The translations under genes were made by a program, and so were the position numbers. Of a DNA stretch of 24,000 bases, positions 122 to 14,746 are shown piece after piece; position 1 is the stretch's first letter; the number at the start of each line of letters is the position of its first letter. The notes under the pieces are model-generated. The model made no database searches. It worked only from the letters and a program-made list of their open reading frames with translations, and was not told where the DNA came from. The stretch comes from Acidithiobacillus sp. M4-SHS-6 (GTDB lineage Bacteria > Pseudomonadota > Gammaproteobacteria > Acidithiobacillales > Acidithiobacillaceae), in assembly GCF_047421495.1 (NCBI RefSeq), contig NZ_CP175559.1, forward strand, positions 2,165,269-2,189,268. Direction: 5' to 3'.

Positions 122-360
122 GCGGTCTCCCTTTCTGAGGAATGCTGCAATCCATGTACCGATCGCAGTGTATTCTTATGGAGTCAGTACGCTGGACAAG
201 CGGTCAGTCGGCAACTTCTGACTTGGGACTGGTCATTGCCTTGCTCAGACGAATACCCTTCTTAATCTTACGACGCTATCCAACAAGCTGTCACGTCTCG
301 ACAAGCCTCGCTGCTTTTTGCACACTGGGAACATACCCTACAGCCGCAAAAGGGCCACCA

Positions 361-1305
361 ATGGCCTATTATAGGAAACACCGCAAATACCGGGGATCCA
401 GTGGAAGCCCGCGGTTGAACATCGCTACCATGACGGACCCCGCGTGGATCGGCTCGGCCATCCTCGCAGGCATCATCCTGTTTTCATCCTGGCTGATCCT
501 ACCCACCGTTTTTCAGATTAACCCCATCCTGAAGATACTGACGCCACTTTTTGAGATGATCGGCAGCATCCTGGCGCTGATTTTCGGATTCATGGCGTTC
601 ATGCTGTTTCTGGCCCGCGATACAGAGTCGGTGACACCATCCACAACGTACAAGCCCGCATATCAGCCACCAAAGCCCTCTCAAAAACTCCTGAATGACA
701 ATCCATCACCGTACGCCGACTCCAATCCTGAGCAGCCCTACGGATGGTCCTTGTCACTACTCCGAAGCCTCGAATGGAAACGGTTTGAAGACCTTTGCAA
801 TGAATATCACCGTGAATGTGGTCTGCGAAGCACCACCACAGGGCTCGGTGCCGATGGCGGTGTGGATATTCGTTTGTTCCATCGGAAATCAGGTGAATTA
901 ATCGCAGTTACCCAGTGCAAGGCGCGGTCGAATAGACCCATAGGAGTTGATCTGGTTCGACAGCTTTTGGGCACGATGACCCATGAAAAAGTGCCGATCG
1001 GAACTTTTATCACCAATGGCACTTTTACCAAACCCGCCGAGGAGCTAGCCAAGGAAGATCGTATTATTCTTGTTGACGGCAAACACTTCATAGAACTGAT
1101 TGAGCAGATGCCTGCTTTGTCGCGGGCGCGATTGCTGGCCTTCGCAACGGAAGGGGACTACACCACGCCAACCTGCCCACATTGTGGGATCAAAATGGTG
1201 CCGAGAACCAACAGAAGGAAAGGGAATAAATTCTGGGGCTGCAAAAATTACACCAAATATCCGCCCTGCAAACAAATATTGCAGATGAGAAAAGGAACGG
1301 ACTGA
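361..1305 (+). CDS. Membrane-anchored Mrr-cat (PD-(D/E)xK) restriction-endonuclease-like protein with C-terminal topoisomerase-type C4 zinc ribbon
   Basis: This is part of track ORF 142-1305. The first 73 codons look non-coding, so I prefer the ATG at 361 (alternative ATG at 430). There are two hydrophobic helices (AWIGSAILAGIILFSSWLILPTVF and IGSILALIFGFMAFMLFLA). The Mrr_cat core is WKRFEDLC...GADGGVDIRLF...AVTQCKA...IGVDLVRQLLGTM. The zinc ribbon is CPHCGIKMVPR...KFWGCKNYTKYPPC. Confidence 0.8.
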   Translation: MAYYRKHRKYRGSSGSPRLNIATMTDPAWIGSAILAGIILFSSWLILPTVFQINPILKILTPLFEMIGSILALIFGFMAFMLFLARDTESVTPSTTYKPAYQPPKPSQKLLNDNPSPYADSNPEQPYGWSLSLLRSLEWKRFEDLCNEYHRECGLRSTTTGLGADGGVDIRLFHRKSGELIAVTQCKARSNRPIGVDLVRQLLGTMTHEKVPIGTFITNGTFTKPAEELAKEDRIILVDGKHFIELIEQMPALSRARLLAFATEGDYTTPTCPHCGIKMVPRTNRRKGNKFWGCKNYTKYPPCKQILQMRKGTD

Positions 1306-1309
1306 ATAT

Positions 1310-1494
1310 CCCCAAAATGACCGCAGGCCAATCCGTTTTTCCGAGGGATTAAACATGAGTCCGCACTACAGCAACTGATCCACATACCGAAAGGAACGCT
1401 TGCCATAGATATCGAAAATGACGGCACCAATGGTGAGCACTACCGCGCCCAGTTGGGTGGACAGCGCCTCAATATCAATCATCACATCCTGCAT
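1310..1494 (-). pseudogene. 5' remnant of a DEDDh-type 3'-5' exonuclease (Rv2179c-like/DUF5051-like), with an in-frame stop and truncated
   Basis: Minus-strand ATG at 1494-1492 has the SD aggagaag upstream and lies 21 nt after the stop of the last phosphoesterase gene. Translation is MQDVMIDIEALSTQLGAVVLTIGAVIFDIYGKRSFRYVDQLL, then TAG at 1368-1366. The same frame continues as CGLMFNPSEKRIGL until it runs into the antisense of the 361-1305 gene. MIDIE(T/A)L...IGAV.FD is the ExoI motif of that exonuclease family as I recall it. Confidence 0.45.
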
Positions 1495-1515
1495 GAACTT
1501 CTCCTGCTGTCGAGT

Positions 1516-2262
1516 TCAAATTTCCACTATTCGGTATATCCGTTCATTGCCTTCATCTGGGTAACCCCAGGGATTGCAGTGCACCCGCGTTTTGCCAATG
1601 CGGTAATCCCTCTGGTCATGCACATGTCCATGAATCCAGAGTTCCGGCTTCCAGCGTTGAATACGGTGTTCCTGATTGGAACAAAATCCTCCCGATATGG
1701 GGCTCCCGGCGAATCGGGGGTGCTGGCTTTTGTAGCTGGGCGCGTGATGCGTAATGACCACGGTCGGCCCGTCATGCGGGTGATGAGTGAACTGGCCATC
1801 CAGCCAGGCGATGCTGTCCTGATGCACCTTGAGAACGGCTTCCGGGGTGATGCTGCCGGAATGGCCATCAAAGATCACCTGAAAATCTGACATCATGTGC
1901 TGGCAACTGCGCATCTGTTTCCCGCTGGCGAAGTCTGTCCAGAGGGTCGCACCCAGGAAACGGACGCCGCCGATCGCCATCGACTCGTTTTCCAGCAGAA
2001 ACGCCTGGCGGTCGTGGGCGATGGCCTCCCGGTACTTCCGTCGGTCATCGGGAAAGATCCCATTGTAATATTCGTGGTTACCCAGCACGAAGATGACCGG
2101 CCCCGCGTAGGCCAGACGCAGCTTCCGCAAAAACTCCGTGTAATACTCCGGCATGGTGTCCACGTCGCCACCCAGGACCAGCACGTCGGCACCGGAAAGG
2201 CCAGTCAGCGTGATGGATGAATCGAACTCCAGATGGAGGTCGGAGGCGTAGGCGATGCGCAT
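1516..2262 (-). CDS. Calcineurin-like metallophosphoesterase (long form, paralog of 2909-3766)
   Basis: From track ORF 1516-2334. I start it at the ATG at 2262 (MRIAYASDLHLEF), which has gaagggga upstream and lies 13 nt after the previous stop. All five MPE motifs are present: SDLHLE, GGDVD, GNHEYY, ITHHAP, HGHVH. It also has ATLWTDF and DYRIGKTRVHCNPWGYP. Confidence 0.85.
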   Translation of the reverse strand: MRIAYASDLHLEFDSSITLTGLSGADVLVLGGDVDTMPEYYTEFLRKLRLAYAGPVIFVLGNHEYYNGIFPDDRRKYREAIAHDRQAFLLENESMAIGGVRFLGATLWTDFASGKQMRSCQHMMSDFQVIFDGHSGSITPEAVLKVHQDSIAWLDGQFTHHPHDGPTVVITHHAPSYKSQHPRFAGSPISGGFCSNQEHRIQRWKPELWIHGHVHDQRDYRIGKTRVHCNPWGYPDEGNERIYRIVEI

Positions 2263-2275
2263 GAAATATTCCCCT

Positions 2276-2839
2276 TCAGTCCCAGGCCCGTAAACGTAAA
2301 GATCGGCGCTGCTGCTTCTCGGATTCAGCATCAAATGGCGTCACCGCGCTCAGGATCTCCGCCATCTGAACAGGTTTCCCACCCCAGACATCGGCGCTCA
2401 CTTCCATGGAGCCAGGCAACGGCTGCAGGTTGCCATGCACATGACCATACAAATGCACCGTGCCTTGCCACATGCCGGGCCATTCCCGCATCGGGTAGTG
2501 GCAGAGAAAAACGCTGTGACCATCCACACTGATTTTGGCCATCTCCCGTATGCTGGCCCAGCCTTGCAGGCGGGAGCCACTTACCCCATCAACACGATCA
2601 TGATTACCGACAATCAGATGCTTGGTGCCGTGCAACCTTTTGAGCAGGTCTTGGATGATCTCCGCTGGACGCAAGGAGAAATCGCCCAGGTGATAGACCA
2701 CATCACCGGGGCTCACAACGCTGTTCCAGGCATCCACCAACGCACGGTCCATCTGCGCGCCGTCCTGGAAGGGGCGCTTACAATGCCGGATGATATTGTC
2801 GTGCCCGAAATGGCTGTCGCTGGTAAAAAAGGTGCGCAT
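2276..2839 (-). CDS. Calcineurin-like metallophosphoesterase (short form, different subfamily)
   Basis: From track ORF 2276-2896. The ATG at 2839 is preceded by a near-perfect SD (caaggaggagt). Translation is MRTFFTSDSHFGHDNIIRHCKRPF...HLGDFS...VGNHD...LCHYP...YGHVHG. The N-terminal DxHFGHxNII...RPF signature is typical of small, often phage-borne MPEs. Confidence 0.85.
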   Translation of the reverse strand: MRTFFTSDSHFGHDNIIRHCKRPFQDGAQMDRALVDAWNSVVSPGDVVYHLGDFSLRPAEIIQDLLKRLHGTKHLIVGNHDRVDGVSGSRLQGWASIREMAKISVDGHSVFLCHYPMREWPGMWQGTVHLYGHVHGNLQPLPGSMEVSADVWGGKPVQMAEILSAVTPFDAESEKQQRRSLRLRAWD

Positions 2840-2908
2840 ACTCCTCCTTGAAATCTCCATTGAAATCCCGGCCCTGAAGATTGGCCGGATGGGCAATGAC
2901 CCGCGGGT

Positions 2909-3766
2909 TCATGCAACCGCCTCCTCCAGTTCAATCACCTGTTCCAGCTGCACGCCGGTCCCTTCCCTCGGATATCCGAAGGGATTGGACAACACCCGCA
3001 CCTTACCGATCCGGTAATCCACCACATGATGGATATGGCCGTGCATCCACAACTGCACCCCCTGATCACCATAATGCGCCACGCTTTCCTCCAAATGACT
3101 GGCATAGGCGCCGGACAGATCATCCTTGCGGAAGGAGGGATAAAGCGAATTCCATGCCGGGGCATGGTGGGTGATCACGACCTTGGAGCCATCCCAAGGC
3201 TCTGCAACAGCGGTTTCCAGCCACGTCTTGCTGGCCAGGTGCATCGACAGGGCATCTTGCGGCGCAAAACGCCGGGCACCCCCATGACAGCGTATCCGCT
3301 TATGGTCCTGCATAGTCTCTCGTGCTGCCCGCATGACACAGGGGTCGCCGCCATCAAAATCCGACCACAGGGTGGTTCCGAAAAAACGGATATTGCCGAT
3401 GTCCACGCTTTGTCTTTCCAGCAGCGTAAAGCGCGCCATCAGGTCCTCCGGCACATGTCTGGCCAATCCCTCCCGCCATTTTTCCGGTGCGCGTTCGACG
3501 GAGAACCCCCAGTAATCGTGGTTTCCCAGCACCGCCACAATATGGGGAAAAGGGGGTGCCACCATTTTCAGCCAGTCGGCCAGCTTTTTGGGCGTGCCGA
3601 AGTCACCCGCGAGGACGAGAATACTGTCCGGGTCCGTCGTCAAGGAGGCCAGACGGACCGTGGCGGGTGGATTCACATCCACATGAATATCCGACAGGAG
3701 GCGCAGAAAGGGCTGCGGCTTCCCTGTCAAGGCGCGCGTATCCTCCTCCGATTGTTCCCGCGTCAT
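2909..3766 (-). CDS. Calcineurin-like metallophosphoesterase (long form, paralog of 1516-2262)
   Basis: Track ORF. Motifs are LSDIHVD, AGDFG, GNHDYW, ITHHAP and HGHIHH, plus TTLWSDF and DYRIGKVRVLSNPFGYP, which mirror 1516-2262. Its start overlaps the upstream stop as ATGA (3766-3763). Confidence 0.88.
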   Translation of the reverse strand: MTREQSEEDTRALTGKPQPFLRLLSDIHVDVNPPATVRLASLTTDPDSILVLAGDFGTPKKLADWLKMVAPPFPHIVAVLGNHDYWGFSVERAPEKWREGLARHVPEDLMARFTLLERQSVDIGNIRFFGTTLWSDFDGGDPCVMRAARETMQDHKRIRCHGGARRFAPQDALSMHLASKTWLETAVAEPWDGSKVVITHHAPAWNSLYPSFRKDDLSGAYASHLEESVAHYGDQGVQLWMHGHIHHVVDYRIGKVRVLSNPFGYPREGTGVQLEQVIELEEAVA

Positions 3767-5187
3767 TGTAACCAGTCTCCATTCCTGCCCGACGGCCGCT
3801 CCGCCATGGCCTGCATTTCCAGCAGTCGATACACTACGCCGCGCAAATCGCGCATGGACCGGGGATTACGGGCGAAGGCCTGCTGCAAACGATCCCTGAC
3901 CGTGATTTCCAGATCGGGCAAGGCCGCCGTGTCCACCCCATATTCCCGGGCGACATCCCGCCGCACGTTCTCCAAAATGCGATCAAAATCCTCCGCCTGG
4001 GGAAGCCCCACCCGGATGGTCTCCCAACGGGAGCGCAATGGCCCCGGCAAATCCTCCAGACTGTTTGCCGTCGCCACCCAGCTGATGGCGGAATAATCGA
4101 CCTCGCCGAGGTGAAACTCGTCGAGCACGCCGCTGCTACTGGCAGGTTCCAGAAACGTCAGCAAGGTCTCCCAGATCCGTCCATTCTGGCGTCCCAACCC
4201 CACTTTGTCGATCTCGTCCAGGATCACGATAGGATTGGGGCACTGTCGCTCCAGCATCATTTCCACCAGAAAACCGGGGCGGGCGCTGCTCCAGCCGCGC
4301 GCAGCACCTTTCAGGAGCATATTGTCGTTGGCTCCGGCCAGCGGCACAAAGAGCGTCGGAGCGACCATGGTTTCCCCCAACCGTCGCAGGAACCGGGTCT
4401 TGCCCATACCGGCAGGGCCCAGAAGGAGCAGAGGACGCAGTCGCAGACTGTCCACGCCCAGGCGCTGCGCCAAGACCTGCTGTCGTTCCAGCGCGCCGAT
4501 CGCCGCTTCCATCCAGGGGAACTCCTGCCGCAGCAACTTCGCCCAGGAAAGACTCCGTGGCCATGCCGCCAGCGGCAGAGGACGCAGGAGGGGACGAAAC
4601 CGCTCCAGGTTGCGGCGGTCATCCTCCTTCCCGGGCGCCTGCATGGATTGCAGCACGACCCGCCGGGCACGCCTGCCCTCCTCCGGAATTTCTGCCATAC
4701 CCAGCACACGTTCCAGTACACACTGGAGCGGAAAGAGAGGAAGTGGCACAGCGCTTTCCATCTCCCGGATGAACCGGTTAACCTCCCGGGCCAAAGCCGG
4801 ATCTTCCAGCCGGGCTACGGCCAGCAGGCCCATCTCCAGGGTCAGCATTCGGCACTGCGCACTGCGATCGCGGCTATCCATCCAAAAATCGGCCTTGTTG
4901 CGCCATTGCCCACGCCAGAAATAAAAGGCGTCTCTGAGGAATGTACCATAGGATTTCGGCTGCAGGCGTGCGGCCAGCACCAGGGCATAGATCTCCCCCA
5001 ACTTTGAGCCCTGTTGTGCCGCAATTGTTGCCCACTGCCAGGCGAATTCCTCCGGAGGGCTCCAGCAACCCTCTTTCTGAACCGCTTCCGCAAGGTCGCC
5101 CAATGGGATGCAAGCGACCGCCATCTCCACTGTAAAACGCTGGCTTCTTTCCAGAACCTGGGGAGGCTGGCACTTTAAATGACTCAT
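3763..5187 (-). CDS. AAA+ ATPase with a Lon-like ATPase module, no protease domain, and an uncharacterised N-terminal domain of about 250 aa
   Basis: The track ORF 3763-5232 begins at a GTG. I prefer the ATG at 5187, which overlaps the upstream stop as ATGA (5187-5184). Walker A is LLLGPAGMGKT and Walker B is IVILDEIDK. LLTFLEPASSSGVLDEFHLGEVDYSAISWVATANSLEDLPGPLRSRWETIRV parallels the Lon segment (LLEVLDPEQN..F.D.YL.V.YDLS.V.F..TAN....IP.PLLDRME.I). Nothing after this resembles the Lon S-K protease. Confidence 0.85.
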   Translation of the reverse strand: MSHLKCQPPQVLERSQRFTVEMAVACIPLGDLAEAVQKEGCWSPPEEFAWQWATIAAQQGSKLGEIYALVLAARLQPKSYGTFLRDAFYFWRGQWRNKADFWMDSRDRSAQCRMLTLEMGLLAVARLEDPALAREVNRFIREMESAVPLPLFPLQCVLERVLGMAEIPEEGRRARRVVLQSMQAPGKEDDRRNLERFRPLLRPLPLAAWPRSLSWAKLLRQEFPWMEAAIGALERQQVLAQRLGVDSLRLRPLLLLGPAGMGKTRFLRRLGETMVAPTLFVPLAGANDNMLLKGAARGWSSARPGFLVEMMLERQCPNPIVILDEIDKVGLGRQNGRIWETLLTFLEPASSSGVLDEFHLGEVDYSAISWVATANSLEDLPGPLRSRWETIRVGLPQAEDFDRILENVRRDVAREYGVDTAALPDLEITVRDRLQQAFARNPRSMRDLRGVVYRLLEMQAMAERPSGRNGDWLQ

Positions 5188-5783
5188 CGAATTATGTTCC
5201 AAAGTTGGATTTCCATGTTGGTAGTGCCACACTTTGGGGCTTCATGAATCCAGATCTTCCGAAAAAGCAGGGGGCAGCACAAAGCTAACGGGCCGTGCAT
5301 AACGAATAATCCTAAAAAAGCAGTTATGCCCCAGGCAGGGCGGGAATGGCCCCCTCCGGTGACCATGGTGATCGGGTAATTTGTGCCACGATGTAGCCTG
5401 ACGAGGAGGTCCCAGGGGGTTGTGCCCAGTAACCGCTCCGCAGTCTGCCGTCCGGTCTGTAACTGCGGGTCTTGCTCCTGGTCTACTTCGTGGGCGGCCA
5501 CGACCGCCTGCTGAGAGCCTTCATAGGTGTCCGGAACCGGCAGGAGATAACTCGCCTGTTCGCCGGGAGCCGCGCCTTCCGGCAATACGGCGGTCCAGAC
5601 CGGCTTCGTGTTGGCCGTTTCCTTGTGGGTGACGGTGCTGGTGAAGAAATCGCTGGATGAGGAAGTGCTCATGTGCGAGGTCGTCTGCGCCGCCGCAATC
5701 CAGCCGTTGCCGCTCTGGGCGTGCTGCATGACCAGGCCGACCGCCGTGTTGAATTCATACAGCGAAATGGTTACTATGACCAC
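5184..5783 (-). CDS. Hypothetical protein (first gene of the operon), with one predicted C-terminal hydrophobic helix and no domain I recognise
   Basis: Track ORF, with a GTG start at 5783. Alternative ATG starts are at 5729 and 5672. Third-codon-position G/C stays high through at least 5700. The hydrophobic stretch is AWGITAFLGLFVMHGPLALCCPLLF. The stop overlaps the next start (ATGA). The start is uncertain because a good vapBC promoter sits at 5749-5777. Confidence 0.55.
   Translation of the reverse strand: MVIVTISLYEFNTAVGLVMQHAQSGNGWIAAAQTTSHMSTSSSSDFFTSTVTHKETANTKPVWTAVLPEGAAPGEQASYLLPVPDTYEGSQQAVVAAHEVDQEQDPQLQTGRQTAERLLGTTPWDLLVRLHRGTNYPITMVTGGGHSRPAWGITAFLGLFVMHGPLALCCPLLFRKIWIHEAPKCGTTNMEIQLWNIIR
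5749..5777 (+). promoter_or_regulatory. Putative sigma70 promoter of the antitoxin/toxin operon
   Basis: TTGAAT (5749-5754), a 17-nt spacer, then TACTAT (5772-5777), about 33 nt upstream of the antitoxin ATG. Confidence 0.45.
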
Positions 5784-5792
5784 TGGTAACCA
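5768..5792. promoter_or_regulatory. 7-bp perfect inverted repeat overlapping the -10 box (candidate antitoxin operator)
   Basis: tggttac (5768-5774) and gtaacca (5786-5792) are separated by 11 nt. The left arm overlaps the TACTAT box. Confidence 0.35.
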
Positions 5793-5809
5793 CTCGTGAC
5801 CAGGGGTGC

Positions 5810-6064
5810 ATGATGTTGACTGTCAATGTGAAAGACGCCAAGGCAAAGCTCTCCAGCATAGTAAATGAAGCGATCAATGGCGAGTTCGTGACCATTACCC
5901 GTCATGGCAAGCCGGTTGCAGCACTGGTGTCGATCGAAGTGGCCGAGAAAGCCCGTAAAGCCATGGAGCCAAAACGTATGCGACTGGTGGACTATCTCAG
6001 GACTTTCCCGGGCGATGACGCATTCGAACGTAACCGCACACCATCACGAGATATAGAGATTTAA
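5810..6064 (+). CDS. Type II antitoxin, Phd/YefM family
   Basis: MMLTVNVKDAKAKLSSIVNEAINGEFVTITRHGKPVAALVSIE is the canonical Phd/YefM N-terminus. The gene is small and overlaps the PIN gene by 1 nt (TAATG). Confidence 0.88.
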   Translation: MMLTVNVKDAKAKLSSIVNEAINGEFVTITRHGKPVAALVSIEVAEKARKAMEPKRMRLVDYLRTFPGDDAFERNRTPSRDIEI

Positions 6065-6534
6065 TGAAATTTCTGCTCGACACCGATGTCATTTCCATGC
6101 TTTCACCCGTGCGAAACGCCGTTTCAGCCCCGATTCTTGCCTGGCTGGAACAGATGGATAACGAAGATCGGCTGTTCTTGTCTGTGGTCACTATCCACGA
6201 GATCGAAAAAGGCATTGCTGTTTTAGAAGGCAAAGGAGCGTCCGCAAAGGCATCCGAACTCAGAAAATGGCTTTTAACGCTGGTGTCCACTTACGCGGAC
6301 AAGATTTTGGGATTTGATGCGTCTGCAGCGACGATTGCTGGGCAATTAGAAGCGAGAGCCATAATGGCTGGTCATAATCCGGGAATGGCAGATGCGATTA
6401 TAGCGGGCATTGCCAAGGCGCATAATCTTGTTGTTATTACCCGCAACACCCGCCATTTTCTCACCTTTGGTGAGCATGTGGTTTCTCCTGATGACGCCGC
6501 AGCGTCCCATTGTGGTTTTGGTGAAAAATCCTAA
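6064..6534 (+). CDS. vapC: PIN-domain toxin (VapC/FitB-like ribonuclease)
   Basis: MKFLLDTDVIS...TIHEIEKG...MADAIIAGIAKAHNLVVITRNTRHF. The conserved acidic PIN residues are in their expected positions, and the gene is coupled to the upstream antitoxin. Confidence 0.88.
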   Translation: MKFLLDTDVISMLSPVRNAVSAPILAWLEQMDNEDRLFLSVVTIHEIEKGIAVLEGKGASAKASELRKWLLTLVSTYADKILGFDASAATIAGQLEARAIMAGHNPGMADAIIAGIAKAHNLVVITRNTRHFLTFGEHVVSPDDAAASHCGFGEKS

Positions 6535-6571: not shown

Positions 6572-6730
6572 CCACCGAAGGACGACATCCATCCCTACGA
6601 CTATCTGGTCGATGTTCTGCAGCGGGTCAGCCAGCACCCCGCCTCCCGGATCGCCGAACTGACCCCGCGACTCTGGAAGCAACACTTCGCCGCCAACCCT
6701 CTGCGCTCGGATTTGTATAACCTTCGGTAA
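6572..6730 (+). pseudogene. C-terminal fragment of an IS66-family transposase
   Basis: The frame opens after a stop at 6569-6571: PPKDDIHPYDYLVDVLQRVSQHPASRIAELTPRLWKQHFAANPL..., ending at TAA 6728-6730. This matches the conserved IS66 TnpC tail (DPxxYLxDVLxRlxxHPasrIxELlPxxW). No upstream part of the gene is present. Confidence 0.6.
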
Positions 6731-6803
6731 TAAACCGCGAGAGACGCCGCTCGGTTACCGTACATGGACGTCCCCAGTTTGCCAAACAATGTTGTTGGCC
6801 GGG

Positions 6804-7625
6804 CTATACGTCCACGGCCGCTACTGCGTAGTCGGGCCGGAATGACCGATCATGAGCGAGGAGCGCCCAGACGATTCGTGCGGACTTATTCGCCAAAGCC
6901 ACGGCCGCCACATTTTTGTTGCGACGTATGGCCACGGAAAAGTCCCAATTTTTGGGATCTGCCTTCTGTAAAACCCGATAAATCACCGACCGTGCGCCAT
7001 GAATCATGAGGGTGCGCAGGTAAGCATCTCCTCGCTTACTCATACCCAACAGGTTTTGTTTCCCCCCACTGGAATACTGCCTGGGAACCAATCCAAGCCA
7101 AGCAGCCAATTGGCGGCCATTTTTAAAATTCTTTTTCCGAGAGCCGGTCAATGAGACCACGGAACGATTCTGGCAATTTCTGGCTGGTGTCCTCCATCAA
7201 CTGATGGGACACGCTGTGTGACATAAGTGATCCCTTGCGGCACGACAATACCGAATTCGCTCAGCAGGCCACGAATCTGGTTGGCCTGCGCCGTGCGCGC
7301 CTTCACGAAACCTTGCCGCACCCGATGCAGTGAGAGAACCGCTTTCTGTTCGACATTCTTGATCGGGGCATAACGCATCGATGGTCGGCTAACCGCCTCG
7401 CAGATGGCCTCGGCATCAGCCGCATCATTCTTGTTGCTCTTCACGTAGGGCTTTACGAACTGGGGTGCCATCAGCTTGACCGTGTGCCCCAAGGATTCCA
7501 GCTTGCGTGCCCAATGATGCGCACTGCCGCAGGCCTCCATGCCGAGCAGGCACGGCGATAGGTTCGCAAAAAATATCGCAAGTTGGTTGCGATTGCTCGT
7601 GTAGTGAGGAAACCCTCACTATGGC
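6804..7625 (-). mobile_element. Degraded IS110-family transposase (5'-truncated, internally deleted/frameshifted)
   Basis: Track ORFs 7148-7540 (MEACGSAHHWARKLESLGHTVKLMAPQFVKPYVKSNKNDAADAEAICEAV...) and 6804-7160 (...FKNGRQLAAWLGLVPRQYSSGGKQNLLGMSKRGDAYLRTLMIHGARS...) are the DEDD and Transposase_20 halves. They are in different frames, and the middle of the protein (tens of aa) is missing between them. Homology upstream of the ATG (SNRNQLAIFFANLSPCLLG) ends at a stop near 7625, so the first tens of aa are also missing. Confidence 0.8.
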
Positions 7626-7737
7626 ACATCCATGTCGGTATAGGGTGGGGACGTCCATCCCATTGCTAACACAGGAGCTGTATACGGGTCAGGATCGGCA
7701 AAGTCAGAAAATTTGGGAAGGTGGGTTGCCTAAACGC

Positions 7738-8270
7738 TTACTGGCGGGTGGCGTGAGCAGCCATGTAGGCAGCGGTGGCATGATCACCAAGGTGCGGACC
7801 GCCGCCCAGGCCACTCGCTCGGGTACTGCCATCATCATCGTCAGCGGTCACGAACCGGACCTGCTGTTGCGCCTGCACCGGGGAGAGGCCCTGGGCACCT
7901 ACTTCCATCCCCGCCTGACCCGCCTGACCCGCCCGCAAGCGCTGGCTGGGCAACTCCGGGCAGCCGGCACCCTGCACCTCGACGCCGGCGCCGCCCAGGT
8001 GTTGAGGAAAAAGGGCGGCAGCCTGCTGCCCGTCGGTGTTACCGCGGCAGAAGGGCGCTTTCAGCGCGGCGATCTGGTCGTCTGCCTGGACCCGAAGGAC
8101 CGGGAAGTGGGCCGAGCCTGGTCAATCTCGACGCGCAGATGGTCCGGCAACGCACGGGGAAAAGCAGCAAGGTGATCGCCAAGGAGTTTGGTGAGCTGGA
8201 GGATCCGGAACTCATCCACCGCGACAATCTCGTCCTCAGCGAAACGGAGATCCCCGAAGAAGGGGCTTAG
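7738..8270 (+). pseudogene. proB: 3' fragment of glutamate 5-kinase (proB), about the last 45 percent including the PUA domain, with a 1-nt frameshift
   Basis: AGGVSSHVGSGGMITKVRTAAQATRSGTAIIIVSG...LDAGAAQVLRKKGGSLLPVGVTAAEGRFQRGDLVV matches the ProB C-terminal half. Near 8116 (cgagcctg) the frame shifts, and the homologous tail GLVNLDAQMVRQRTGKSSKVIAKEFGELEDPELIHRDNLVL continues in another frame to TAG 8268-8270. The kinase N-terminal half is absent. Confidence 0.75.
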
Positions 8271-8650
8271 AGACTCGCCTCCGTCTGCTCCTGCAACGCT
8301 TCCCAGCGCCGCTGGCAGGCCACACAACGCTCGGCTTCGGGTTCCACCCGCAAACGCGCCACGGGAATCTCTTCCCCGCAGTCCACGCAGATCCCGTAAG
8401 TGCCGGCCCTGATGCGCTCCAGGGCGAGGTTCACCGCCCGCAACGCCTGGGCCTCCCGCAAATCCCGCGCCAGCCCCAGGCTCTCGACGAGATCCAGCAC
8501 CGAGTCATCGCCGACATCCCGCACTTCCAGCCGCTCCCGCTCCTCCGCCGCCAACTCGCCGTTGAGCAGATGCGCACGCACGCCCATGAGCAAGTCGCGG
8601 CGCCGGTCTTTCAGGATATGATGAAAGGTTTCTACGAGTTTCGCATCCAT
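8267..8650 (-). CDS. DksA/TraR-family C4 zinc-finger protein
   Basis: The C-terminus is GTYGICVDCGEEIPVARLRVEPEAERCVACQ (CxxC-17-CxxC) after a helical region. The SD aagaggaa lies upstream of the ATG. Its stop overlaps the proB-fragment stop tail-to-tail. Confidence 0.8.
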   Translation of the reverse strand: MDAKLVETFHHILKDRRRDLLMGVRAHLLNGELAAEERERLEVRDVGDDSVLDLVESLGLARDLREAQALRAVNLALERIRAGTYGICVDCGEEIPVARLRVEPEAERCVACQRRWEALQEQTEASL

Positions 8651-8692
8651 GGAGGGGTTCCTCTTGGTAATGGGGCATACGTTGCCCGTTGG

Positions 8693-9658
8693 CTAGCGTT
8701 TTTTTACTGCGAGCGATTCCATCTCTCTGATCTGTTGTGCCATTACTTCGGCGGGTGTCCGACCCGAAGGGCGGCGTAAGCAAAAACCCAAAGATTTCCT
8801 AGGTCGATTATTGAGTTCGTCGGCAACGATGGTCAAGCAGCACTGAGAAAATTCCAACAGGTCCTGTCCCTTGGGGAAGTACTGCCGCAGCAGGCCGTTG
8901 GTATTCTCGTTCGTGGGCCGCTGCCAGGGACTGTGGGGGTTCGCGAAATAGGCCAGAATCCCTGTGCGTTTCTCCAGCTCCTGATGCCGCGCCATCTCCT
9001 TGCCCTGGTCGTAGGTCAGGGTCTGCCGAAACGCCTTGGGCAGGGACCGCAAGCGCCGCGTGAAGCCGTCCAGAATCGACTCGGCGGTGCTGTCATCCAC
9101 CCGCGCCAGAATCACGAAACGACTGCTGCGGTCCACCAGGGTGCCAATGGCGCTGCCGTTGTAGGCACCCTTGATCAGATCTCCTTCCCAATGGCCGGGA
9201 ATCTCCCGTGCCTCGGCTTCAACGGGACGCTCGCGGAGCGGACGCATGTTCTGGATACCGCCCCGGCGGTCCTTGCCCCGACTCCGGGGGCGCCGTTTGC
9301 CATGCCCCCGCCGCAGCGCCCCAATGAGCGCCCGCTTCAACTCGCCAGCGGGATGGGCATAGATGTACTGGTAAATGGTCTCGTGACTGACCTGTCGGGA
9401 CCGGTCTTCGGGGTAATCCAAGCGCAGCCTCCCGGCCACCTGCTCCGGTGACCACTTCCGCTCCAGCATGGCCGTGCTGACCTGTTCCGTCAAGGCATTC
9501 CCCGGAACCAGCTTGCGTGTGCCTCGGCGTCTCCGGGACCACGCCGTCTCCCGTCCCGTAACCGCATCATAACTGTTGTCCATCCACCCCCGATGAACCT
9601 CCCGGCTCAGGATGCTGGGGTTGCGTTGCAACTCTTTGGCCAGGGCTCTCAGGCTCAT
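8693..9658 (-). CDS. IS30-family transposase (N-terminal HTH apparently incomplete)
   Basis: HWEGDLI...TLVDRSSRF...LTYDQGKEMA...FANPHSPWQRPTNENTNGLLRQYFPKG...ELNNRPRK is the IS30 DDE core. The ORF starts inside the HTH (AAGMSLRALAKELQRNPSILSREV) and there is a stop 7 codons upstream, so the first roughly 20-30 aa seem to be missing or frameshifted. Confidence 0.85.
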   Translation of the reverse strand: MSLRALAKELQRNPSILSREVHRGWMDNSYDAVTGRETAWSRRRRGTRKLVPGNALTEQVSTAMLERKWSPEQVAGRLRLDYPEDRSRQVSHETIYQYIYAHPAGELKRALIGALRRGHGKRRPRSRGKDRRGGIQNMRPLRERPVEAEAREIPGHWEGDLIKGAYNGSAIGTLVDRSSRFVILARVDDSTAESILDGFTRRLRSLPKAFRQTLTYDQGKEMARHQELEKRTGILAYFANPHSPWQRPTNENTNGLLRQYFPKGQDLLEFSQCCLTIVADELNNRPRKSLGFCLRRPSGRTPAEVMAQQIREMESLAVKKR

Positions 9659-10578: not shown

Positions 10579-11145
10579 ATGAAATTTAATATGTTGTCCA
10601 CAGCAGCTCTATCTTTCTCTTTGTTACTTGCCAGTGCAGGTATTGCGCAAGCAGCAAGCACAGCAACGACAACGTTCAACGTCACCGCGACGGTTCCTGC
10701 CTTCTGTAAGGTGAGTGCTACGAACCTGAATTTCGGCAACTATACGCCGGGATCAGGAGCCGTTACGGGGAACTCCACCATTTCTGTGAACTGCACGAAA
10801 GGAACGACGTTCACCGTAGCTTTGAATGCTGGATCGAGTACGGGGGCCTCTTTTACCAATCGCAACATGACCGGTACAGGTGCTGCCGATCCCGCAGGGA
10901 ATACGGCTACAACCTCAGACTTGCTGAACTATCAGCTGTATACCACCGCGACCGTCGGTAGCGGTGGGACGATCTGGGGAGATGGTTCAACAGGCACTTC
11001 CACCGTAGCCGGCACGGGTGCTGGCATGGGCACGCCACAGGCTGTGGCCGAGACGGTTTATGGACAGATCCCAGACAGCACGGTGAACTCAACAGCGGTA
11101 CCCGGTGCGTATTCAGATACGGTGACGGTCACGGTGAGCTATTGA
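10579..11145 (+). CDS. SCPU (spore coat protein U)-domain pilin, CsuA/B-like major subunit
   Basis: The signal peptide is MKFNMLSTAALSFSLLLASAGIAQA. Further SCPU features are TFNVTATVPAFCKVSATNLNFGNY, LNYQLYT, GAYSDTVTVTVSY and paired cysteines. AAGGA lies 6 nt upstream of the ATG. Confidence 0.85.
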   Translation: MKFNMLSTAALSFSLLLASAGIAQAASTATTTFNVTATVPAFCKVSATNLNFGNYTPGSGAVTGNSTISVNCTKGTTFTVALNAGSSTGASFTNRNMTGTGAADPAGNTATTSDLLNYQLYTTATVGSGGTIWGDGSTGTSTVAGTGAGMGTPQAVAETVYGQIPDSTVNSTAVPGAYSDTVTVTVSY

Positions 11146-11146
11146 C

Positions 11147-11896
11147 ATGATGCGGTGGATTTGCAGATGTGGGGGCGCGGGACGAGTCATTGGTTTTTTT
11201 CTACTCATCGTTCTGCCTTTTTCTGCACAGGCCGGTGATTTCGCCATATCGCCGGTCCATGTTCACCTGTCTCAACACCATCCGATTGCCGCTCTGGTGT
11301 TGACCAATTTGCAGGATACATCACTGACGGTACAGGCAACAGCGCAAGCCTGGTCACAAGCACATGGCAAGAATATGACGACAGATACCCACAGTCTCAT
11401 TATTTCTCCGCCACTTTTTGCCGTGCCTCCGCACGGGAAACAGATCATCCGTGTGGGTCTGCGGACGCCCATTCCTCTGCGCCAGGAGAAAGACTACCGC
11501 TTGATCCTGCATGAAGTGCCTCCTCCACCCAATCCGAAAGTCACGGGGGTGCAGATCGTATTAAGAATGATCCTCCCGGTATTTGTTGCGCCTTTAGAAA
11601 AGGCGGCACCTCTCCAGTTACAGGTTTCTGCCCACGTTACGAAAAACGGATTTTCCTTGCAAATGGTCAATGACGGTAATCGGCATGTAGAAATTTCGGG
11701 AGTACGAATTTCTGAGAACGATCATGAAATTTTCAGGAAAGACCTTCTGATGTATGTACTGCCAGCCTCTCGTCAAGAGATCGATATTCCTGTCGCACAG
11801 AGTTTGTCTTATGTCGGGAAAACGCTGTCTGTGCAAATCATGACCCGTCAGAAGGAACAGCCCATAGATGCATCTGTGGTGGTTGTCGCCTCTTAA
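11147..11896 (+). CDS. Periplasmic fimbrial chaperone (PapD-fold, CsuC-like)
   Basis: A signal peptide ends in SAQA and is followed by FAISPVHVHL...ALVLTNLQD..LTVQ...IISPPLFAVPPHGKQIIRVG. The gene lies between the pilin and the usher. Confidence 0.8.
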   Translation: MMRWICRCGGAGRVIGFFLLIVLPFSAQAGDFAISPVHVHLSQHHPIAALVLTNLQDTSLTVQATAQAWSQAHGKNMTTDTHSLIISPPLFAVPPHGKQIIRVGLRTPIPLRQEKDYRLILHEVPPPPNPKVTGVQIVLRMILPVFVAPLEKAAPLQLQVSAHVTKNGFSLQMVNDGNRHVEISGVRISENDHEIFRKDLLMYVLPASRQEIDIPVAQSLSYVGKTLSVQIMTRQKEQPIDASVVVVAS

Positions 11897-14276
11897 TGGA
11901 AGATGTGCGGCGTTCTTTTTCTCGATGGCATTATTCTGTAGCGGTTTTGCCCACGCCCAAGGGATCGCCTCTGCGCCTTTCCCTCAACGGATCGGTGGGA
12001 GATTCTCCCCAACGAAACCCGTGGCAGTTATTTTTTCGGTGCATCTGAATGGGAAGCCAGTGAGTAGCGGTACGGTATTACAGCGTCTGCCTGACGGGGA
12101 ACTGCTTGTCTCAGCGAAAGACCTCACAAAATGGCGCTTGCGACGGCCCAAGAGTTCCGGACTGCTTATCGATAAGGTGTGGTATTATCCCTTATCCGCG
12201 TTGAAGATAAACAGTTATCATGTGGATACGGAAAGCCAGTCCTTGTTTCTCAAAGCGTCGGCAAGTGCATTCTTGCCCACAATGATCACAAAGCGGCAGG
12301 GACAAAACATCCGCGTTACGCCGCCATCTCTCGGTGCTTTCTTCAATTATAACCTTTATGCCCAACACACCATAGGAAACACGCAAGAAGGAGGCTATTT
12401 CAAACTGGGGGTGTTTAGCCCGCTAGGCGTAGTCACTACGAGCTTTATTGTTCAGCATGGCATGGACTTTCAACAAATAGCCAACCAGTCAGTGGTGGTT
12501 CGCCTCAACTCTCTCTGGACCCGTAATTTTCCCAATCGAATGACTGCATTGCAAGTGGGCGATTTTATCACACAGCCCGGTGCTTGGGGTCAGGCGGTGC
12601 GTATGGGTGGCGTCCAGTATGGAACGAACTTTGCCACCCAACCTTATTTGGTCACCACCCCACTGTACAGTGTGCGTGGCCAGGCGGTACTGCCGTCAAT
12701 GGTGGATGTGTACGTGAATCATGTTTTGGTATCGCGAAGTAAGGTACCGTCTGGGCCATTTGCGATCACGCATCTACCCGTCATCACGGGAAGCGGAAAT
12801 ATCAGCACGGTGGTCACCAACATGTTAGGTGCGCAACAGGTTATTACCCAACCTTTCTTCTCCAGTCAGCAGTTATTGCGTCCGGGATTGACCGATTTCT
12901 CCTTTGCCGCTGGGTGGATACGACAAGACTATGGAATACGCAGCAATGATTATGGATCTGCTGCAGCCGTAGGCACTTATCGCATGGGACTTTCCAATAC
13001 CTTCACCGGTGAGATTCATGGGGAGTTGCAGGCCAACAGAAATGCGCTCGGATTCTCTGGCTCCTGGGTGGTCAGTCCGTTAGGCATATTCTCTGGTTCT
13101 GTGGCCTATAGCCACAATCCATGTATTCATCCCGGACAGGGCGTATTGGCGAGCCTGGGTTTTGAACGCATCACGCAAGGCTTGTCTTTCAGTGCCAATG
13201 CACAGATAGATTCCTTGGGCTTTACGCAACTGGGGGATGTTCTTGGATATCCCCGCTTGAACTGGCAGGGAAATGCGACGATCAGTCAGGGTATTGGCTA
13301 TTGGGGTTCTCTGTCTGCATCGTATATTACCCAGAAATATTTTGGAGAGCCCGCGATCAAGATCACCCAGGCCAGCTACAATATCGGTTTGGGTCGTTGG
13401 GGTTACGTGAGTGCATCACTGCTGCGCACCTTTTCTCCCGAACAAAATACCCAGGTAGGGCTGTACTGGACAGTACCCTTTGGGTCGAGATCCAATGTGA
13501 GCCTGACCGCACAATCTGGGGGCACAGGAACTGGAGGTACACTGTGGACCGCCACTGCGCAGCGGAATCTTCCTGTAGGTGCTGGTTTTGGTTATCTGCT
13601 GCAGGCGTCCAGCAATCGCCAGACCTATTTACAGGGCCAATACCGTGGGCCGATAGGCACCTATACCGCACAAATGCAGTCTATAGCGGGTCAAGGGAGT
13701 AGCTACCGCCTGGAAGCCACCGGGGGAATGGGCATATTGGCCAGGACCACGTTCTTCAGCCGCACCATCAACGACAGTTTTGCGTTGATTCAAGTGCCTC
13801 ATATTGCGGGAGTGCAAGTATACGCTAACAATAACCTGATTGGTCGTACTCATACGGACGGGTACTTGATTATCCCGCAGCTACAGCCCTATCAACATAA
13901 TGTCATCTCCATCAATCAGCAGGATTTGCCCCTGGATGCGGAAGTCCCCACATTGGATATGCCGCTCGTTCCGGCCTATTTGAGCGGAAGCGTATTGACG
14001 TTCCCCATAGAGGTAGTGCGTTCGGCGACATTCACTTTGGTTCAGGAAAATGGCAAGCCTGTGCCCCCTGGTGCCATGCTGCAAATTCGTGGGCAAAAGA
14101 AGTCCTATCCCGTAGGATTTCATGGGCTGTCCTACCTGTCAGGGCTGGCGGTGCATAATACGGTAGACGCCACTTGGTCTGGTGGTCAGTGTAGCTTTAC
14201 TTTGACAGATCCCAAGACTACCCACCTGTTGCCCAATTTAGGGAGACAGGTTTGCCGAAACGGAGAACTCCAGTGA
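11868..14276 (+). CDS. Outer-membrane fimbrial usher (CsuD-like)
   Basis: It is 802 aa with a signal peptide ending in AHAQG and beta-rich G/S/T/Q/Y composition throughout. The middle and C-terminal plug-like segments resemble ushers (VDVYVNHVLVSRSKVPSGPFAI..LP). It overlaps the chaperone end, and the next gene starts at its stop. An alternative start is at 11925. Confidence 0.88.
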   Translation: MHLWWLSPLNGRCAAFFFSMALFCSGFAHAQGIASAPFPQRIGGRFSPTKPVAVIFSVHLNGKPVSSGTVLQRLPDGELLVSAKDLTKWRLRRPKSSGLLIDKVWYYPLSALKINSYHVDTESQSLFLKASASAFLPTMITKRQGQNIRVTPPSLGAFFNYNLYAQHTIGNTQEGGYFKLGVFSPLGVVTTSFIVQHGMDFQQIANQSVVVRLNSLWTRNFPNRMTALQVGDFITQPGAWGQAVRMGGVQYGTNFATQPYLVTTPLYSVRGQAVLPSMVDVYVNHVLVSRSKVPSGPFAITHLPVITGSGNISTVVTNMLGAQQVITQPFFSSQQLLRPGLTDFSFAAGWIRQDYGIRSNDYGSAAAVGTYRMGLSNTFTGEIHGELQANRNALGFSGSWVVSPLGIFSGSVAYSHNPCIHPGQGVLASLGFERITQGLSFSANAQIDSLGFTQLGDVLGYPRLNWQGNATISQGIGYWGSLSASYITQKYFGEPAIKITQASYNIGLGRWGYVSASLLRTFSPEQNTQVGLYWTVPFGSRSNVSLTAQSGGTGTGGTLWTATAQRNLPVGAGFGYLLQASSNRQTYLQGQYRGPIGTYTAQMQSIAGQGSSYRLEATGGMGILARTTFFSRTINDSFALIQVPHIAGVQVYANNNLIGRTHTDGYLIIPQLQPYQHNVISINQQDLPLDAEVPTLDMPLVPAYLSGSVLTFPIEVVRSATFTLVQENGKPVPPGAMLQIRGQKKSYPVGFHGLSYLSGLAVHNTVDATWSGGQCSFTLTDPKTTHLLPNLGRQVCRNGELQ

Positions 14277-14746
14277 TGATAGAACGCTACAGGAAATGGG
14301 TTGTTGCGGCAGTATTGCTACTGACTCCTCTCGCGGGAAATGCCGTCACTTGTTCTGCAAGTGCCCCAAATATCAATTTTGGGTCATACAATACCTTGAA
14401 TACCATCCAACTGCCTGCATCGGATATTTCCGTAACTTGTGCGGGTCTTGGTTTTGTTGCTCCAAAGGTCACTCTCAGTTCAGGCTCCGGGAGTTACTCA
14501 GCGAGAGTGATGAATGGGCCTGCAGGGAACACGCTGCAATATAACTTGTATACCAATTCCAGTTATACCACCGTATTTGGTGATGGTTCTTCCGGGACAG
14601 GTTACTATACTGGCAGTCTGCAATTTCTGTTTTTTGGTTCTGTGACCTATTCTGTTCCAGTCTATGCACAACTACCAGGCGAACAGAACGTGGCTCCGGG
14701 GACTTATTCGACGAATACGCCCATTACAGTGACCGTCAGTTACTGA
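14276..14746 (+). CDS. SCPU-domain minor pilin/tip subunit
   Basis: I start this at the ATG overlapping the usher stop (TGATG), not at the track ORF start of 14252. The signal peptide is MIERYRKWVVAAVLLLTPLAGNA. SCPU features are CSASAPNINFGSY, LQYNLYTN, GTYSTNTPITVTVSY. Confidence 0.8.
   Translation: MIERYRKWVVAAVLLLTPLAGNAVTCSASAPNINFGSYNTLNTIQLPASDISVTCAGLGFVAPKVTLSSGSGSYSARVMNGPAGNTLQYNLYTNSSYTTVFGDGSSGTGYYTGSLQFLFFGSVTYSVPVYAQLPGEQNVAPGTYSTNTPITVTVSY

Follow-up and report, generated by a model that had tools for sequence, protein, structure and literature searches.

The question raised by a small gene cluster in Acidithiobacillus sp. M4-SHS-6 is whether five tightly packed open reading frames (ORFs), predicted to encode a protein of no recognised family (the “orphan”), a Lon-like AAA+ ATPase and three metallophosphoesterases (MPE1, MPE2 and MPE3), form an undescribed defence operon, as was proposed in a preliminary description made from the DNA letters alone. 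The cluster is located within a stretch of 24,000 nt of contig NZ_CP175559.1 (positions 2,165,269 to 2,189,268), which is here called the window. Comparison with related loci indicates with high confidence that the locus represents an eroded copy of a conserved, mobile and uncharacterised cassette of a Lon-type ATPase and phosphoesterases. The tightly coupled operon of five genes did not hold as a unit, since the comparative loci display another architecture and three deletions are present in the window.

Gene layout of the locus

Upon direct reading of the sequence, the five ORFs were all found on the minus strand as described, i.e. the orphan (199 amino acids, aa; 5184–5783), the ATPase (474 aa from its ATG; 3763–5187), MPE1 (285 aa; 2909–3766), MPE2 (187 aa; 2276–2839) and MPE3 (248 aa; 1516–2262). 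The ATGA overlaps at 5187–5184 and 3766–3763, the 69-nt gap (2908–2840) with the sequence caaggaggagt ahead of the ATG at 2839, and the 13-nt gap (2275–2263) exist as well. The ATPase is of the protease-less LonA type. MPE1 and MPE3 are metallophosphoesterases of one type (MPE_A, Icc/PptH-like), and MPE2 is of another (MPE_B, aq_1665/PdeM-like).

Recurrence of the ATPase–phosphoesterase pairing

The association of the ATPase with phosphoesterases recurs far outside the close relatives of the window locus, and this part of the original proposal was borne out. The pairing ranges over Acidithiobacillia, Alpha-, Beta- and Gammaproteobacteria, a spirochaete, plasmids and one viral contig. Outside Acidithiobacillia, members of the same two phosphoesterase families come after ATPases of 24–36% identity. 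MPE_A does so in Aureimonas and Methylobacter, MPE_B in Antarcticirhabdus and at three Aurantimonas loci, and in Treponema ruminis MPE_B is succeeded by MPE_A. In one IMG/VR contig, a Metallophos gene comes after the ATPase. A first sample of 56 ATPase genes was searched for phosphoesterase genes on the same strand and no more than 6 kb away, about as much sequence being covered upstream as downstream. Such a gene was found downstream at 22 of the 56 and upstream at none (0/56). Chance juxtaposition, named in the preliminary description as a ground on which the proposal would fall, is ruled out by this recurrence together with the downstream polarity.

A metallophosphoesterase gene is located near the ATPase in five of 14 annotated plasmid regions carrying the ATPase, and it is adjacent in four. 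The Sphaerotilus plasmid contains a helix-turn-helix (HTH) gene, the ATPase and two phosphoesterases, in this order. On the Polaromonas plasmid, MPE_A is situated ca. 1.4 kb downstream of the ATPase, past three small ORFs, and a metallophosphoesterase is likewise near the ATPase on the Microvirga plasmid. In Aurantimonas sp. A2-1-M11, three loci on three scaffolds (L022, L024 and L028 in our numbering of loci; approximately 6590–9504 in each) have unrelated flanks and share only a unit of ca. 2.9 kb with about 80% identity, composed of a small upstream ORF, the ATPase, a 73-aa ORF and MPE_B. This unit appears to behave as a discrete mobile module.

Other genes were repeatedly observed beside the more distant ATPases. 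In Hydrogenophaga (L025, L042, and L044–L048), the ATPase directly follows a tyrosine integrase and a protein of ca. 700 aa, with several copies per genome; the ca. 700-aa protein has no Pfam or NCBIfam match, and a small HTH gene is often nearby. This arrangement looks like an integrative element with the ATPase as a core gene. In Methylococcales (L029, L034, L035, L038, L039 and L040), a protein of 203–241 aa is encoded after the ATPase, with overlapping genes in three loci. This protein is HNH-like by eye and has zinc-ribbon cysteines; with weak zinc-finger matches only in Pfam, it was not called a nuclease. On Paracoccaceae plasmids, DUF6634 proteins flank the ATPase (L064 2770–3336 and 5986–6459; L065 5781–6020). 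DUF6634 was not found in the other loci, and there was no mention of it in the literature searched.

The intact cassette in relatives

The closest intact equivalent of the window cassette was identified in Acidithiobacillus sp. CV18-2 (ATPase 41% identical), in the order divergent gene, ATPase, ApaH-like gene, MPE_B, MPE_A and exoribonuclease. Other Acidithiobacillia contain differing subsets and orders of these genes, some of them only the divergent gene and the ATPase. The hydrolase set after the ATPase is interchangeable and comprises MPE_A, MPE_B and ApaH/PrpA-like genes, sometimes a Zeta/AAA_33-type P-loop protein, and sometimes an Rv2179c-type exoribonuclease. In A. ferruginosus CF3, the ATPases of two cassettes (L009 and L015) are about 46% identical, while a 1.6-kb segment with the MPE1 and ApaH-like genes (L009 9473–11100, L015 9383–11010) shows 92% nucleotide identity between them. 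This suggests that hydrolase cargo was recently exchanged between diverged ATPase backbones.

The divergent gene (DIV385, ca. 380–420 aa) was detected with a hidden Markov model (HMM) in 14 of 18 Acidithiobacillia loci and is lacking in the window; its N-terminus is HTH-like, by eye only. About 50–80 bp upstream of the ATPase start, an intergenic promoter/operator-like element is found in 15 Acidithiobacillia loci (among them L001 9922–9947, L009 7744–7769 and L005 7938–7963). It is made up of TAGTACA, a TTGACA −35-like box and TGCACTA, the first and the last of which form an imperfect inverted repeat around the −35-like box. In L015, a second match to the element is present further upstream.

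The kinase-like gene of the cassette (L015 11086–12417; L016 10271–11704) has an N-terminal domain of ca. 130 aa with conserved cysteines and a histidine, and with no family match. The domain stands alone in Methylobacter (L038 14078–14710), beside a second copy of the ATPase. The Methylobacter HMM match to the kinase-like gene covers only this N-terminal zinc-binding domain and was not counted, nor was the weak match (28 bits) in Polaromonas.

Three deletion scars in the window copy

In comparison with its relatives, the window copy has undergone three deletions, one upstream, one internal and one downstream. What is left of the cassette is a truncated ATPase gene followed by genes of the MPE_A, MPE_B and MPE_A types.

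The upstream breakpoint (5162–5167) is located inside the ATPase coding region, and homology to all relatives stops there. In blastn alignments the homology to relatives stops at window positions 5158–5167, and tblastn alignments with the 526-aa relatives begin at residue 58–60 of the relatives, corresponding to window positions 5166–5160. Ten of the eleven close ATPase relatives with at least 76% identity are 525–527 aa long, compared to 474 aa in the window, and relative to proteins of 509–548 aa the window ATPase is shorter by about 52–59 N-terminal residues. The promoter/operator, the divergent regulator-like gene and ca. 59 ATPase codons were thereby lost. The promoter/operator-like motif is absent from the window, and the native promoter counted on in the cloning experiment suggested previously is missing. 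A scan of positions 1200–6200 for promoter and terminator consensus sequences was uninformative, its counts being no higher than in shuffled sequence.

The orphan ORF is situated on the other side of this breakpoint. It obtained zero matches in Pfam, PADLOC, PHROG and NCBIfam, and had been described as an orphan protein belonging to the operon; neither part of that description could be upheld. A family of ca. 320-aa Acidithiobacillus homologues exists, of which the ORF is a truncated 5′ fragment, its residues ca. 4–177 aligning to the N-terminal half of the homologues P0121 and P0123 (320–323 aa, Acidithiobacillus). Moreover, the ORF is absent beside the ATPase in all of the 58 other loci analysed (0/58). 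By alignment, two truncated genes, the orphan and the ATPase, thus meet at a rearrangement junction. The ATGA overlap between the two is regarded as accidental, because it is only about 20–25 bp from the junction at ca. 5162–5167. In the full-length family a glycine-rich hydrophobic central region was observed (L051 6001–6972), and this full-length gene of L051 adjoins the genes for VirB8, VirB9 and VirB10.

The internal scar lies within the 69-nt gap. Window positions 2912–2861 on the minus strand are a vestige of an ApaH/PrpA-like phosphoesterase gene, namely its first 17 codons (MNPRVIAHPANLQGRDF), and the same N-terminus begins the gene after MPE1 in L001. The order in relatives is MPE1, then, with an ATGA overlap, the ApaH/PrpA-like phosphoesterase gene, the Zeta/AAA_33-type P-loop gene, and MPE2. 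In blastn alignments, the junction at window 2861/2860 corresponds to a skip from 10306 to 12483 in L010, and from 10216 to 12415 in L015. The junction is readable base by base, with the 17 ApaH-like codons followed by the last bases of the kinase-like gene, and a leftover ORF of 44 codons. The gap is thus not simply intergenic, since the vestige of the deleted gene takes up most of it. The ApaH/PrpA-like proteins of the relatives match ApaH, PrpA and PrpB (ca. 1e-16) over the N-terminal part only.

Downstream of MPE3, a gene overlooked in the preliminary description was identified at 1366–1494 on the minus strand as a 42-codon ORF beginning with MQDVMIDIEALST, the remnant of an Rv2179c-like 3′-5′ exoribonuclease gene. 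An intact exoribonuclease gene (148–195 aa) comes after the phosphoesterases in L005, L006 and L009, and its L005 product matches PF16473 with an E-value of 4.6e-26. The blastn alignment to L009 halts at window position 1411 and resumes 548 bp further on in L009, beyond the end of its exoribonuclease gene.

With respect to co-translation, only a part of the hallmarks named earlier was retained. The orphan/ATPase overlap and the 69-nt gap are deletion scars, whereas the 4-nt ATGA overlap between the ATPase and MPE1 is kept in six relatives (L001, L007, L008, L009, L010 and L011). MPE1 itself is 81–84% identical to the gene following the ATPase in L001, L007, L008, L009 and L010. For annotation, it follows that tight overlaps and short gaps can be scars of deletion and not evolved translational coupling, and that a single locus should not serve to define a system until relatives have been compared.

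The surviving genes still look like genuine genes, with pairwise ratios of non-synonymous to synonymous substitution rates (dN/dS) versus relatives in the range of 0.07–0.27 (ATPase 0.17–0.21, MPE1 0.21–0.25, MPE2 0.11–0.27, MPE3 0.07–0.15). As a system, the module in the window has probably lost its regulation or its activity, though these genes are intact ORFs. The association at the level of families offers a good experimental lead; the window copy is damaged.

The ATPase is a Lon-type motor lacking the protease domain

The preliminary description had recognised a Lon-like ATPase without protease domain, which was confirmed, and had proposed searches with the Pfam families AAA for this protein and Metallophos or Metallophos_2 for the phosphoesterases, which gave matches in both cases. 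The ATPase matches Pfam AAA (2.9e-11) and, partially, the TIGR00763 lon model (75.6 bits versus a cut-off of 608). The Lon_C protease domain PF05362 is absent from the window ATPase and from all 16 members of the family profile, and the protein stops after the small AAA subdomain. Likewise, no Pfam match was obtained in the N-terminal ca. 240 residues of any member, and the LON N-domain PF02190 is thus absent. Against the PDB, the 16-member profile matches LonA and LONP1 at ca. 1e-43, over both AAA subdomains and part of the preceding helical region. In the AlphaFold2 model (predicted local distance difference test, pLDDT, 81.7), for which LONP1 and LonA are the best Foldseek matches, an all-helical N-terminal region is followed by Lon-like pre-AAA helices and by the large and small AAA subdomains. 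The first ca. 160 residues were modelled as a stack of about eight helices, in a helical repeat-like manner.

Walker A residues G260, G262 and K263 (GPAGMGKT), Walker B residues D324 and E325, as well as N375, R387 and R446 are invariant in the 16 family members. Invariant is also W299 (RGWSSARPG), at the position of the Lon pore-loop tyrosine (RRTYIGSMPG in Lon). From these residues, the protein looks like an active ring translocase and not a degenerate relic.

An exhaustive profile search returned 6154 family representatives (50%-identity clusters) at E ≤ 1e-30, probably including true Lon proteases. The best 150 representatives all have E < 1e-89, and most of them are 330–600 aa long and therefore protease-less. 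The family is encoded on plasmids in 117 records. Only nine weak matches were obtained in phages, and blastn of window positions 1400–5900 against the phage collection gave no match. A scan of viral contigs with the ATPase alignment yielded one locus, and the ATPase is for this reason not regarded as mainly a phage gene.

The phosphoesterases

All three phosphoesterases carry the five-motif metal site that had been claimed for them, as supported by the Metallophos/Metallophos_2 matches and by motifs I–V read in the translations: DIH, GD, GNHD, THH and GHIH in MPE1; DSH, GD, GNHD, H and GHVH in MPE2; and DLH, GD, GNHE, THH and GHVH in MPE3. The calcineurin-like motifs DxH, GD, GNH[D/E], H and GHxH are invariant in the alignments of the phosphoesterase families. 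MPE1 (Metallophos 4.4e-10; phrog_1649 5.6e-43) and MPE3 (Metallophos 5.3e-13; phrog_1649 8.5e-52; partial PADLOC PDC-S10 1.6e-14) are paralogous with ca. 35% identity, and MPE2 matches Metallophos_2 (6e-07) and phrog_547 (1.2e-50).

The AlphaFold2 model of MPE3 (pLDDT 94.6) has PptH as its first Foldseek match (6unc, template modelling (TM) score 0.74, E-value 7e-11), followed by MPPED2, Dbr1, Rv0805 and GpdQ. SbcD and Mre11 were ranked 24th–26th, and protein phosphatases of the PPP class were near-noise matches. In the sequence-profile search with the MPE_A family, 6unc again came first (3.9e-9, covering the N-terminal 70 positions). MPE1 and MPE3 are accordingly members of the phosphodiesterase branch and not of the Mre11 branch, because the MPE3 model is nearest to PptH, MPPED2, Dbr1, Rv0805 and GpdQ. 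The MPE_B family profile in turn matches Aquifex aq_1665 (1xm7, 5e-25) and the Pseudomonas putida “Nuclease MPE” (6nvo, 1.6e-3), and the family matches the TIGR04123 PdeM model weakly (15.9–27 versus a cut-off of 150).

Among the activities suggested previously, an Mre11/SbcD-like nucleolytic role does not fit MPE1 and MPE3, the latter being nearest to phosphodiesterases; of the three, only MPE2 is linked, and weakly, to a DNA nuclease, the ssDNA nuclease MPE/PdeM of P. putida. A role of the three intact genes as phosphoprotein phosphatases was rejected, as the PPP motifs GDxHG and GDxVDRG are absent from the three proteins and the PPP fold is lacking. The PPP type is represented solely by the deleted ApaH/PrpA-like gene with its 17 leftover codons.

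Comparison with known systems

None of the domains is new, and pairing an ATPase with hydrolytic partners is a familiar logic. The preliminary description had not recognised the cluster as any named defence system, and PADLOC-DB 2.0.0 indeed returned none. Distant versions of the cassette produced generic AAA similarities only in the same database, and no description of a system combining a Lon-like ATPase (protease-less Lon) with a metallophosphoesterase was found in full-text literature searches.

With LonA (Escherichia coli Lon, human LONP1), the window ATPase shares the AAA subdomains, Walker A and B, the sensor and arginine-finger positions and an aromatic pore-loop residue. It differs from LonA in having neither the S16 protease domain nor PF02190, in place of which there is a variable all-helical N-terminal region. 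BREX BrxL, RADAR RdrA/RdrB and IetA/IetS resemble the cassette as ring ATPases with a hydrolytic partner that occur sporadically on islands and plasmids, often near restriction or toxin–antitoxin genes. However, no model of these systems matches the cassette beyond generic P-loop similarity, and its partners are calcineurin-fold phosphoesterases. BrxL keeps a Lon-protease-like C-terminal domain and is part of a six-gene BREX locus. There was no BrxL match for the ATPase, and no BREX genes (PglX, PglZ, BrxC) were found among the window ORFs scanned.

In SbcCD, Mre11-Rad50 and T4 gp46-gp47 an ATPase is likewise encoded with a binuclear metallophosphoesterase, but the ATPase of the cassette is of AAA+ type and not a Rad50-type ABC protein with coiled coils, and SbcD and Mre11 rank low for MPE3. 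PptH (Rv2795c), Rv0805, MPPED2 and GpdQ are the best structural matches of MPE3, but with an identity of only 15–18% and in a different gene context, and no substrate is inferable from them. Differences from the P. putida nuclease MPE/PdeM of the ligase-Lhr cluster are that MPE_B scores far under the PdeM cut-off, and that no ligase or Lhr helicase is nearby. Aquifex aq_1665, the best profile match of MPE_B, was deposited as a hypothetical protein. Bacterial Pnkp-type RNA repair, in which a kinase, a metallophosphoesterase-type phosphatase and a ligase cooperate, is not matched, since the full cassettes of relatives have a P-loop kinase-like gene and phosphoesterases but no ligase; the kinase-like gene was lost in the window, and the ApaH/PrpA-like gene scored 16.8 bits against the Pnkp model with its cut-off of 750. 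Phage genes of phrog_1649 (MPE1, MPE3) and phrog_547 (MPE2) are family matches found without a Lon-like ATPase. As a phage metallophosphoesterase, mycobacteriophage A10ZJ24 Gp48, which was reported to counter host immunity (PMC12287305), may be set beside the phosphoesterases of the cassette.

Possible function of the cassette

Taken as a whole, the locus is best explained as a decayed mobile cassette, a conflict module of motor-plus-effector design and of defence type, an explanation which we regard as narrowly probable. In the proposed mechanism, the divergent regulator would repress the operon, and the ATPase would assemble into a Lon-like hexamer whose variable helical N-terminal domain would pick the target. 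The pore-loop tryptophan and the intact ATP site could then engage or remodel this target, and hydrolysis would be the task of the phosphoesterases, which would cleave phosphodiester bonds of nucleic-acid ends, of nucleotides or of nucleotide–protein linkages. Plasmids and islands would carry the module.

Considered separately, the assignment of the cassette to conflict modules with a leaning towards defence is tentative and falls somewhat short of an even chance. The leaning is based on restriction- and toxin-type neighbours (Mrr, type I restriction, DarT/DarG-like, E1/E2/ubiquitin-like, MNT-HEPN, VapBC), on the dedicated adjacent regulator with an operator-like element, on chromosomal islets that persist under purifying selection without other mobile-element genes, and on the swapping of the downstream hydrolase between lineages. 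Several observations weigh against it. Three to five different hydrolases behind one ATPase are atypical for defence systems. PADLOC-DB 2.0.0 returned no families for the orphan, the ATPase (0 families) and MPE2, and only the partial PDC-S10, a single-gene candidate, for MPE1 and MPE3. DIV385 obtained nothing significant in Pfam, NCBIfam, PADLOC, a PDB profile search or hhalign against plasmid regulators. The ATPase is found without phosphoesterase in L002, L004, L013 and L017, in Hydrogenophaga, in nine of the 14 plasmid regions, and in the Rhodobacterales-type loci L020, L023, L026, L027, L031 and L043. On the Bradyrhizobium plasmid, MPE_A precedes the ATPase and overlaps it by 4 nt, and on the Ketogulonicigenium plasmid there is a phosphoesterase on either side, thus also upstream. 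The cargo with 92% identity on ATPases with ca. 46% identity suggests loose coupling. Finally, MPE_A and MPE_B genes occur without the ATPase in large virulent phages, and since they are common there, the families evidently work without the ATPase, often on the side of the invader.

The last point leads to the main rival, in our judgement an unlikely one, according to which plasmids, integrative elements and phages use the cassette for counter-defence or for their establishment. In this view, the nucleotides used in immune signalling, or alarmones, would be broken down by the phosphodiesterases, damaged RNA ends would be left to the ApaH-like, kinase-like and exoribonuclease proteins for healing or trimming, and a host factor would be stripped away or unfolded by the Lon-like motor. 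In agreement with this, virulent phages are rich in relatives of MPE_A (188 phage records) and of MPE_B (1374), the ATPase family is present on many plasmids, and the fold of MPE3 is near to cyclic-nucleotide and 2′,5′-phosphodiesterases (MPPED2, Rv0805, Dbr1). The enzyme set of full cassettes (kinase-like protein, Rv2179c exoribonuclease, and the ApaH/PrpA-like gene with its weak Pnkp match) and an RNA ligase gene near the ATPase on a Bosea plasmid point in the same direction, as does the counter-defence role reported for a phage metallophosphoesterase (PMC12287305). On the other hand, small chromosomal islets are under purifying selection without other mobile-element genes, toxic modules on the host side more typically have a dedicated regulator next to them, and the Sphaerotilus plasmid operon adjoins replication and partition genes, not transfer genes. 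It also counts against counter-defence that AAA+ motors are not known among counter-defence proteins. A joint function could also be lacking altogether: the ATPase would serve to maintain or regulate mobile elements, for instance alongside the divergent regulator or an integrase and the ca. 700-aa protein, and the phosphoesterases would be unrelated cargo at the same variable spot. Several Acidithiobacillia loci in which the ATPase, whether or not accompanied by the divergent gene, has no phosphoesterases, the Hydrogenophaga order of tyrosine integrase, ca. 700-aa protein and ATPase, the exchange of cargo between diverged backbones, and the functioning of the phosphoesterases in phages without the ATPase all accord with this. 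It becomes distinctly improbable in view of the same two phosphoesterase families recurring beside ATPases of only 25–35% identity in five bacterial classes, usually in directly adjacent same-strand pairs that sometimes overlap by 4 nt, and of the Aurantimonas 2.9-kb unit, which moves as ATPase plus MPE_B. As to the literal proposal, in which the orphan, the ATPase and the three phosphoesterases make up one undamaged defence operon coupled in translation from end to end, the described ORFs, overlaps and short gaps do exist, and NCBI annotates the orphan and the 474-aa ATPase as genes. Nonetheless, it is very hard to reconcile with an orphan that is a truncated fragment of an unrelated ca. 320-aa family and nowhere else beside the ATPase, with an ATPase deprived of its 5′ end, promoter and partner gene, and with a deletion scar inside the 69-nt gap, and we give it next to no weight.

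Returning to the decayed conflict module, a wider proposition is that protease-less LonA-type ATPases with MPE_A and/or MPE_B make up a new system of immunity or counter-immunity, two or three genes in size and widespread on plasmids and genomic islands, in which a Lon-like hexameric motor controls or feeds phosphodiesterase effectors. This is possible, and rather doubtful. If true, these effectors would also exist in stand-alone form, as the very common phage phosphoesterases of phrog_1649 and phrog_547. Should the pairing be functional, a role would be obtained for a large family annotated only as “AAA family ATPase” and for two phosphoesterase families in well over a thousand phage genomes, and a Lon-derived motor would join the mechanisms of conflict between bacteria and mobile DNA.

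Neighbouring genes

The flanks of the locus, described previously as an Mrr_cat nuclease and a VapBC module, were confirmed by family searches. The restriction-type nuclease gene (142–1305, plus strand) is convergent to the cassette. Its product matches Mrr_cat (1.6e-26), with weak matches to PADLOC mREase_IV and PDC-S02, and it has a C-terminal zinc ribbon and, by eye, two hydrophobic N-terminal segments; the nuclease assignment thus stands, and the claimed membrane anchor is seen by eye only. Mrr was found in three loci; in L009 and L016 its orthologues flank the cassette on the corresponding side, and it is considered as a recurring neighbour and not as a proven member. On the other side, a PhD/YefM antitoxin gene (5810–6064; PF02604, 1.6e-12) and a PIN/VapC toxin gene (6064–6534; PF01850, 1.2e-10), both on the plus strand and abutting at 6064, are considered as flanking context only; related PIN genes are located elsewhere near the cassette in L001 and L009. 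Across the loci, the cassette neighbours include type I restriction genes, a DarT/DarG-like pair, an E1/E2/ubiquitin-like set, a DUF1998 protein, an MNT-HEPN pair and VapBC.

Beyond the toxin–antitoxin pair, an IS110-family transposase is encoded on the minus strand in two overlapping ORFs (6804–7540; DEDD_Tnp_IS110 and Transposase_20), and is probably a frameshifted pseudogene. Beside this broken insertion sequence, an ORF on the plus strand (7507–8175) contains a C-terminal PUA domain only and may be a truncated gene. The following stretch of the minus strand (8267–9658) comprises a DksA/TraR-type zinc-finger gene (8267–8650) and a 321-aa ORF (8693–9658) that is IS30-transposase-like by eye. 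A chaperone-usher operon was identified on the plus strand at 10579–14746, in the order SCPU, PapD-like chaperone, usher and SCPU, with a G+C content of 0.47–0.53 as compared to 0.58–0.63 in the cassette.

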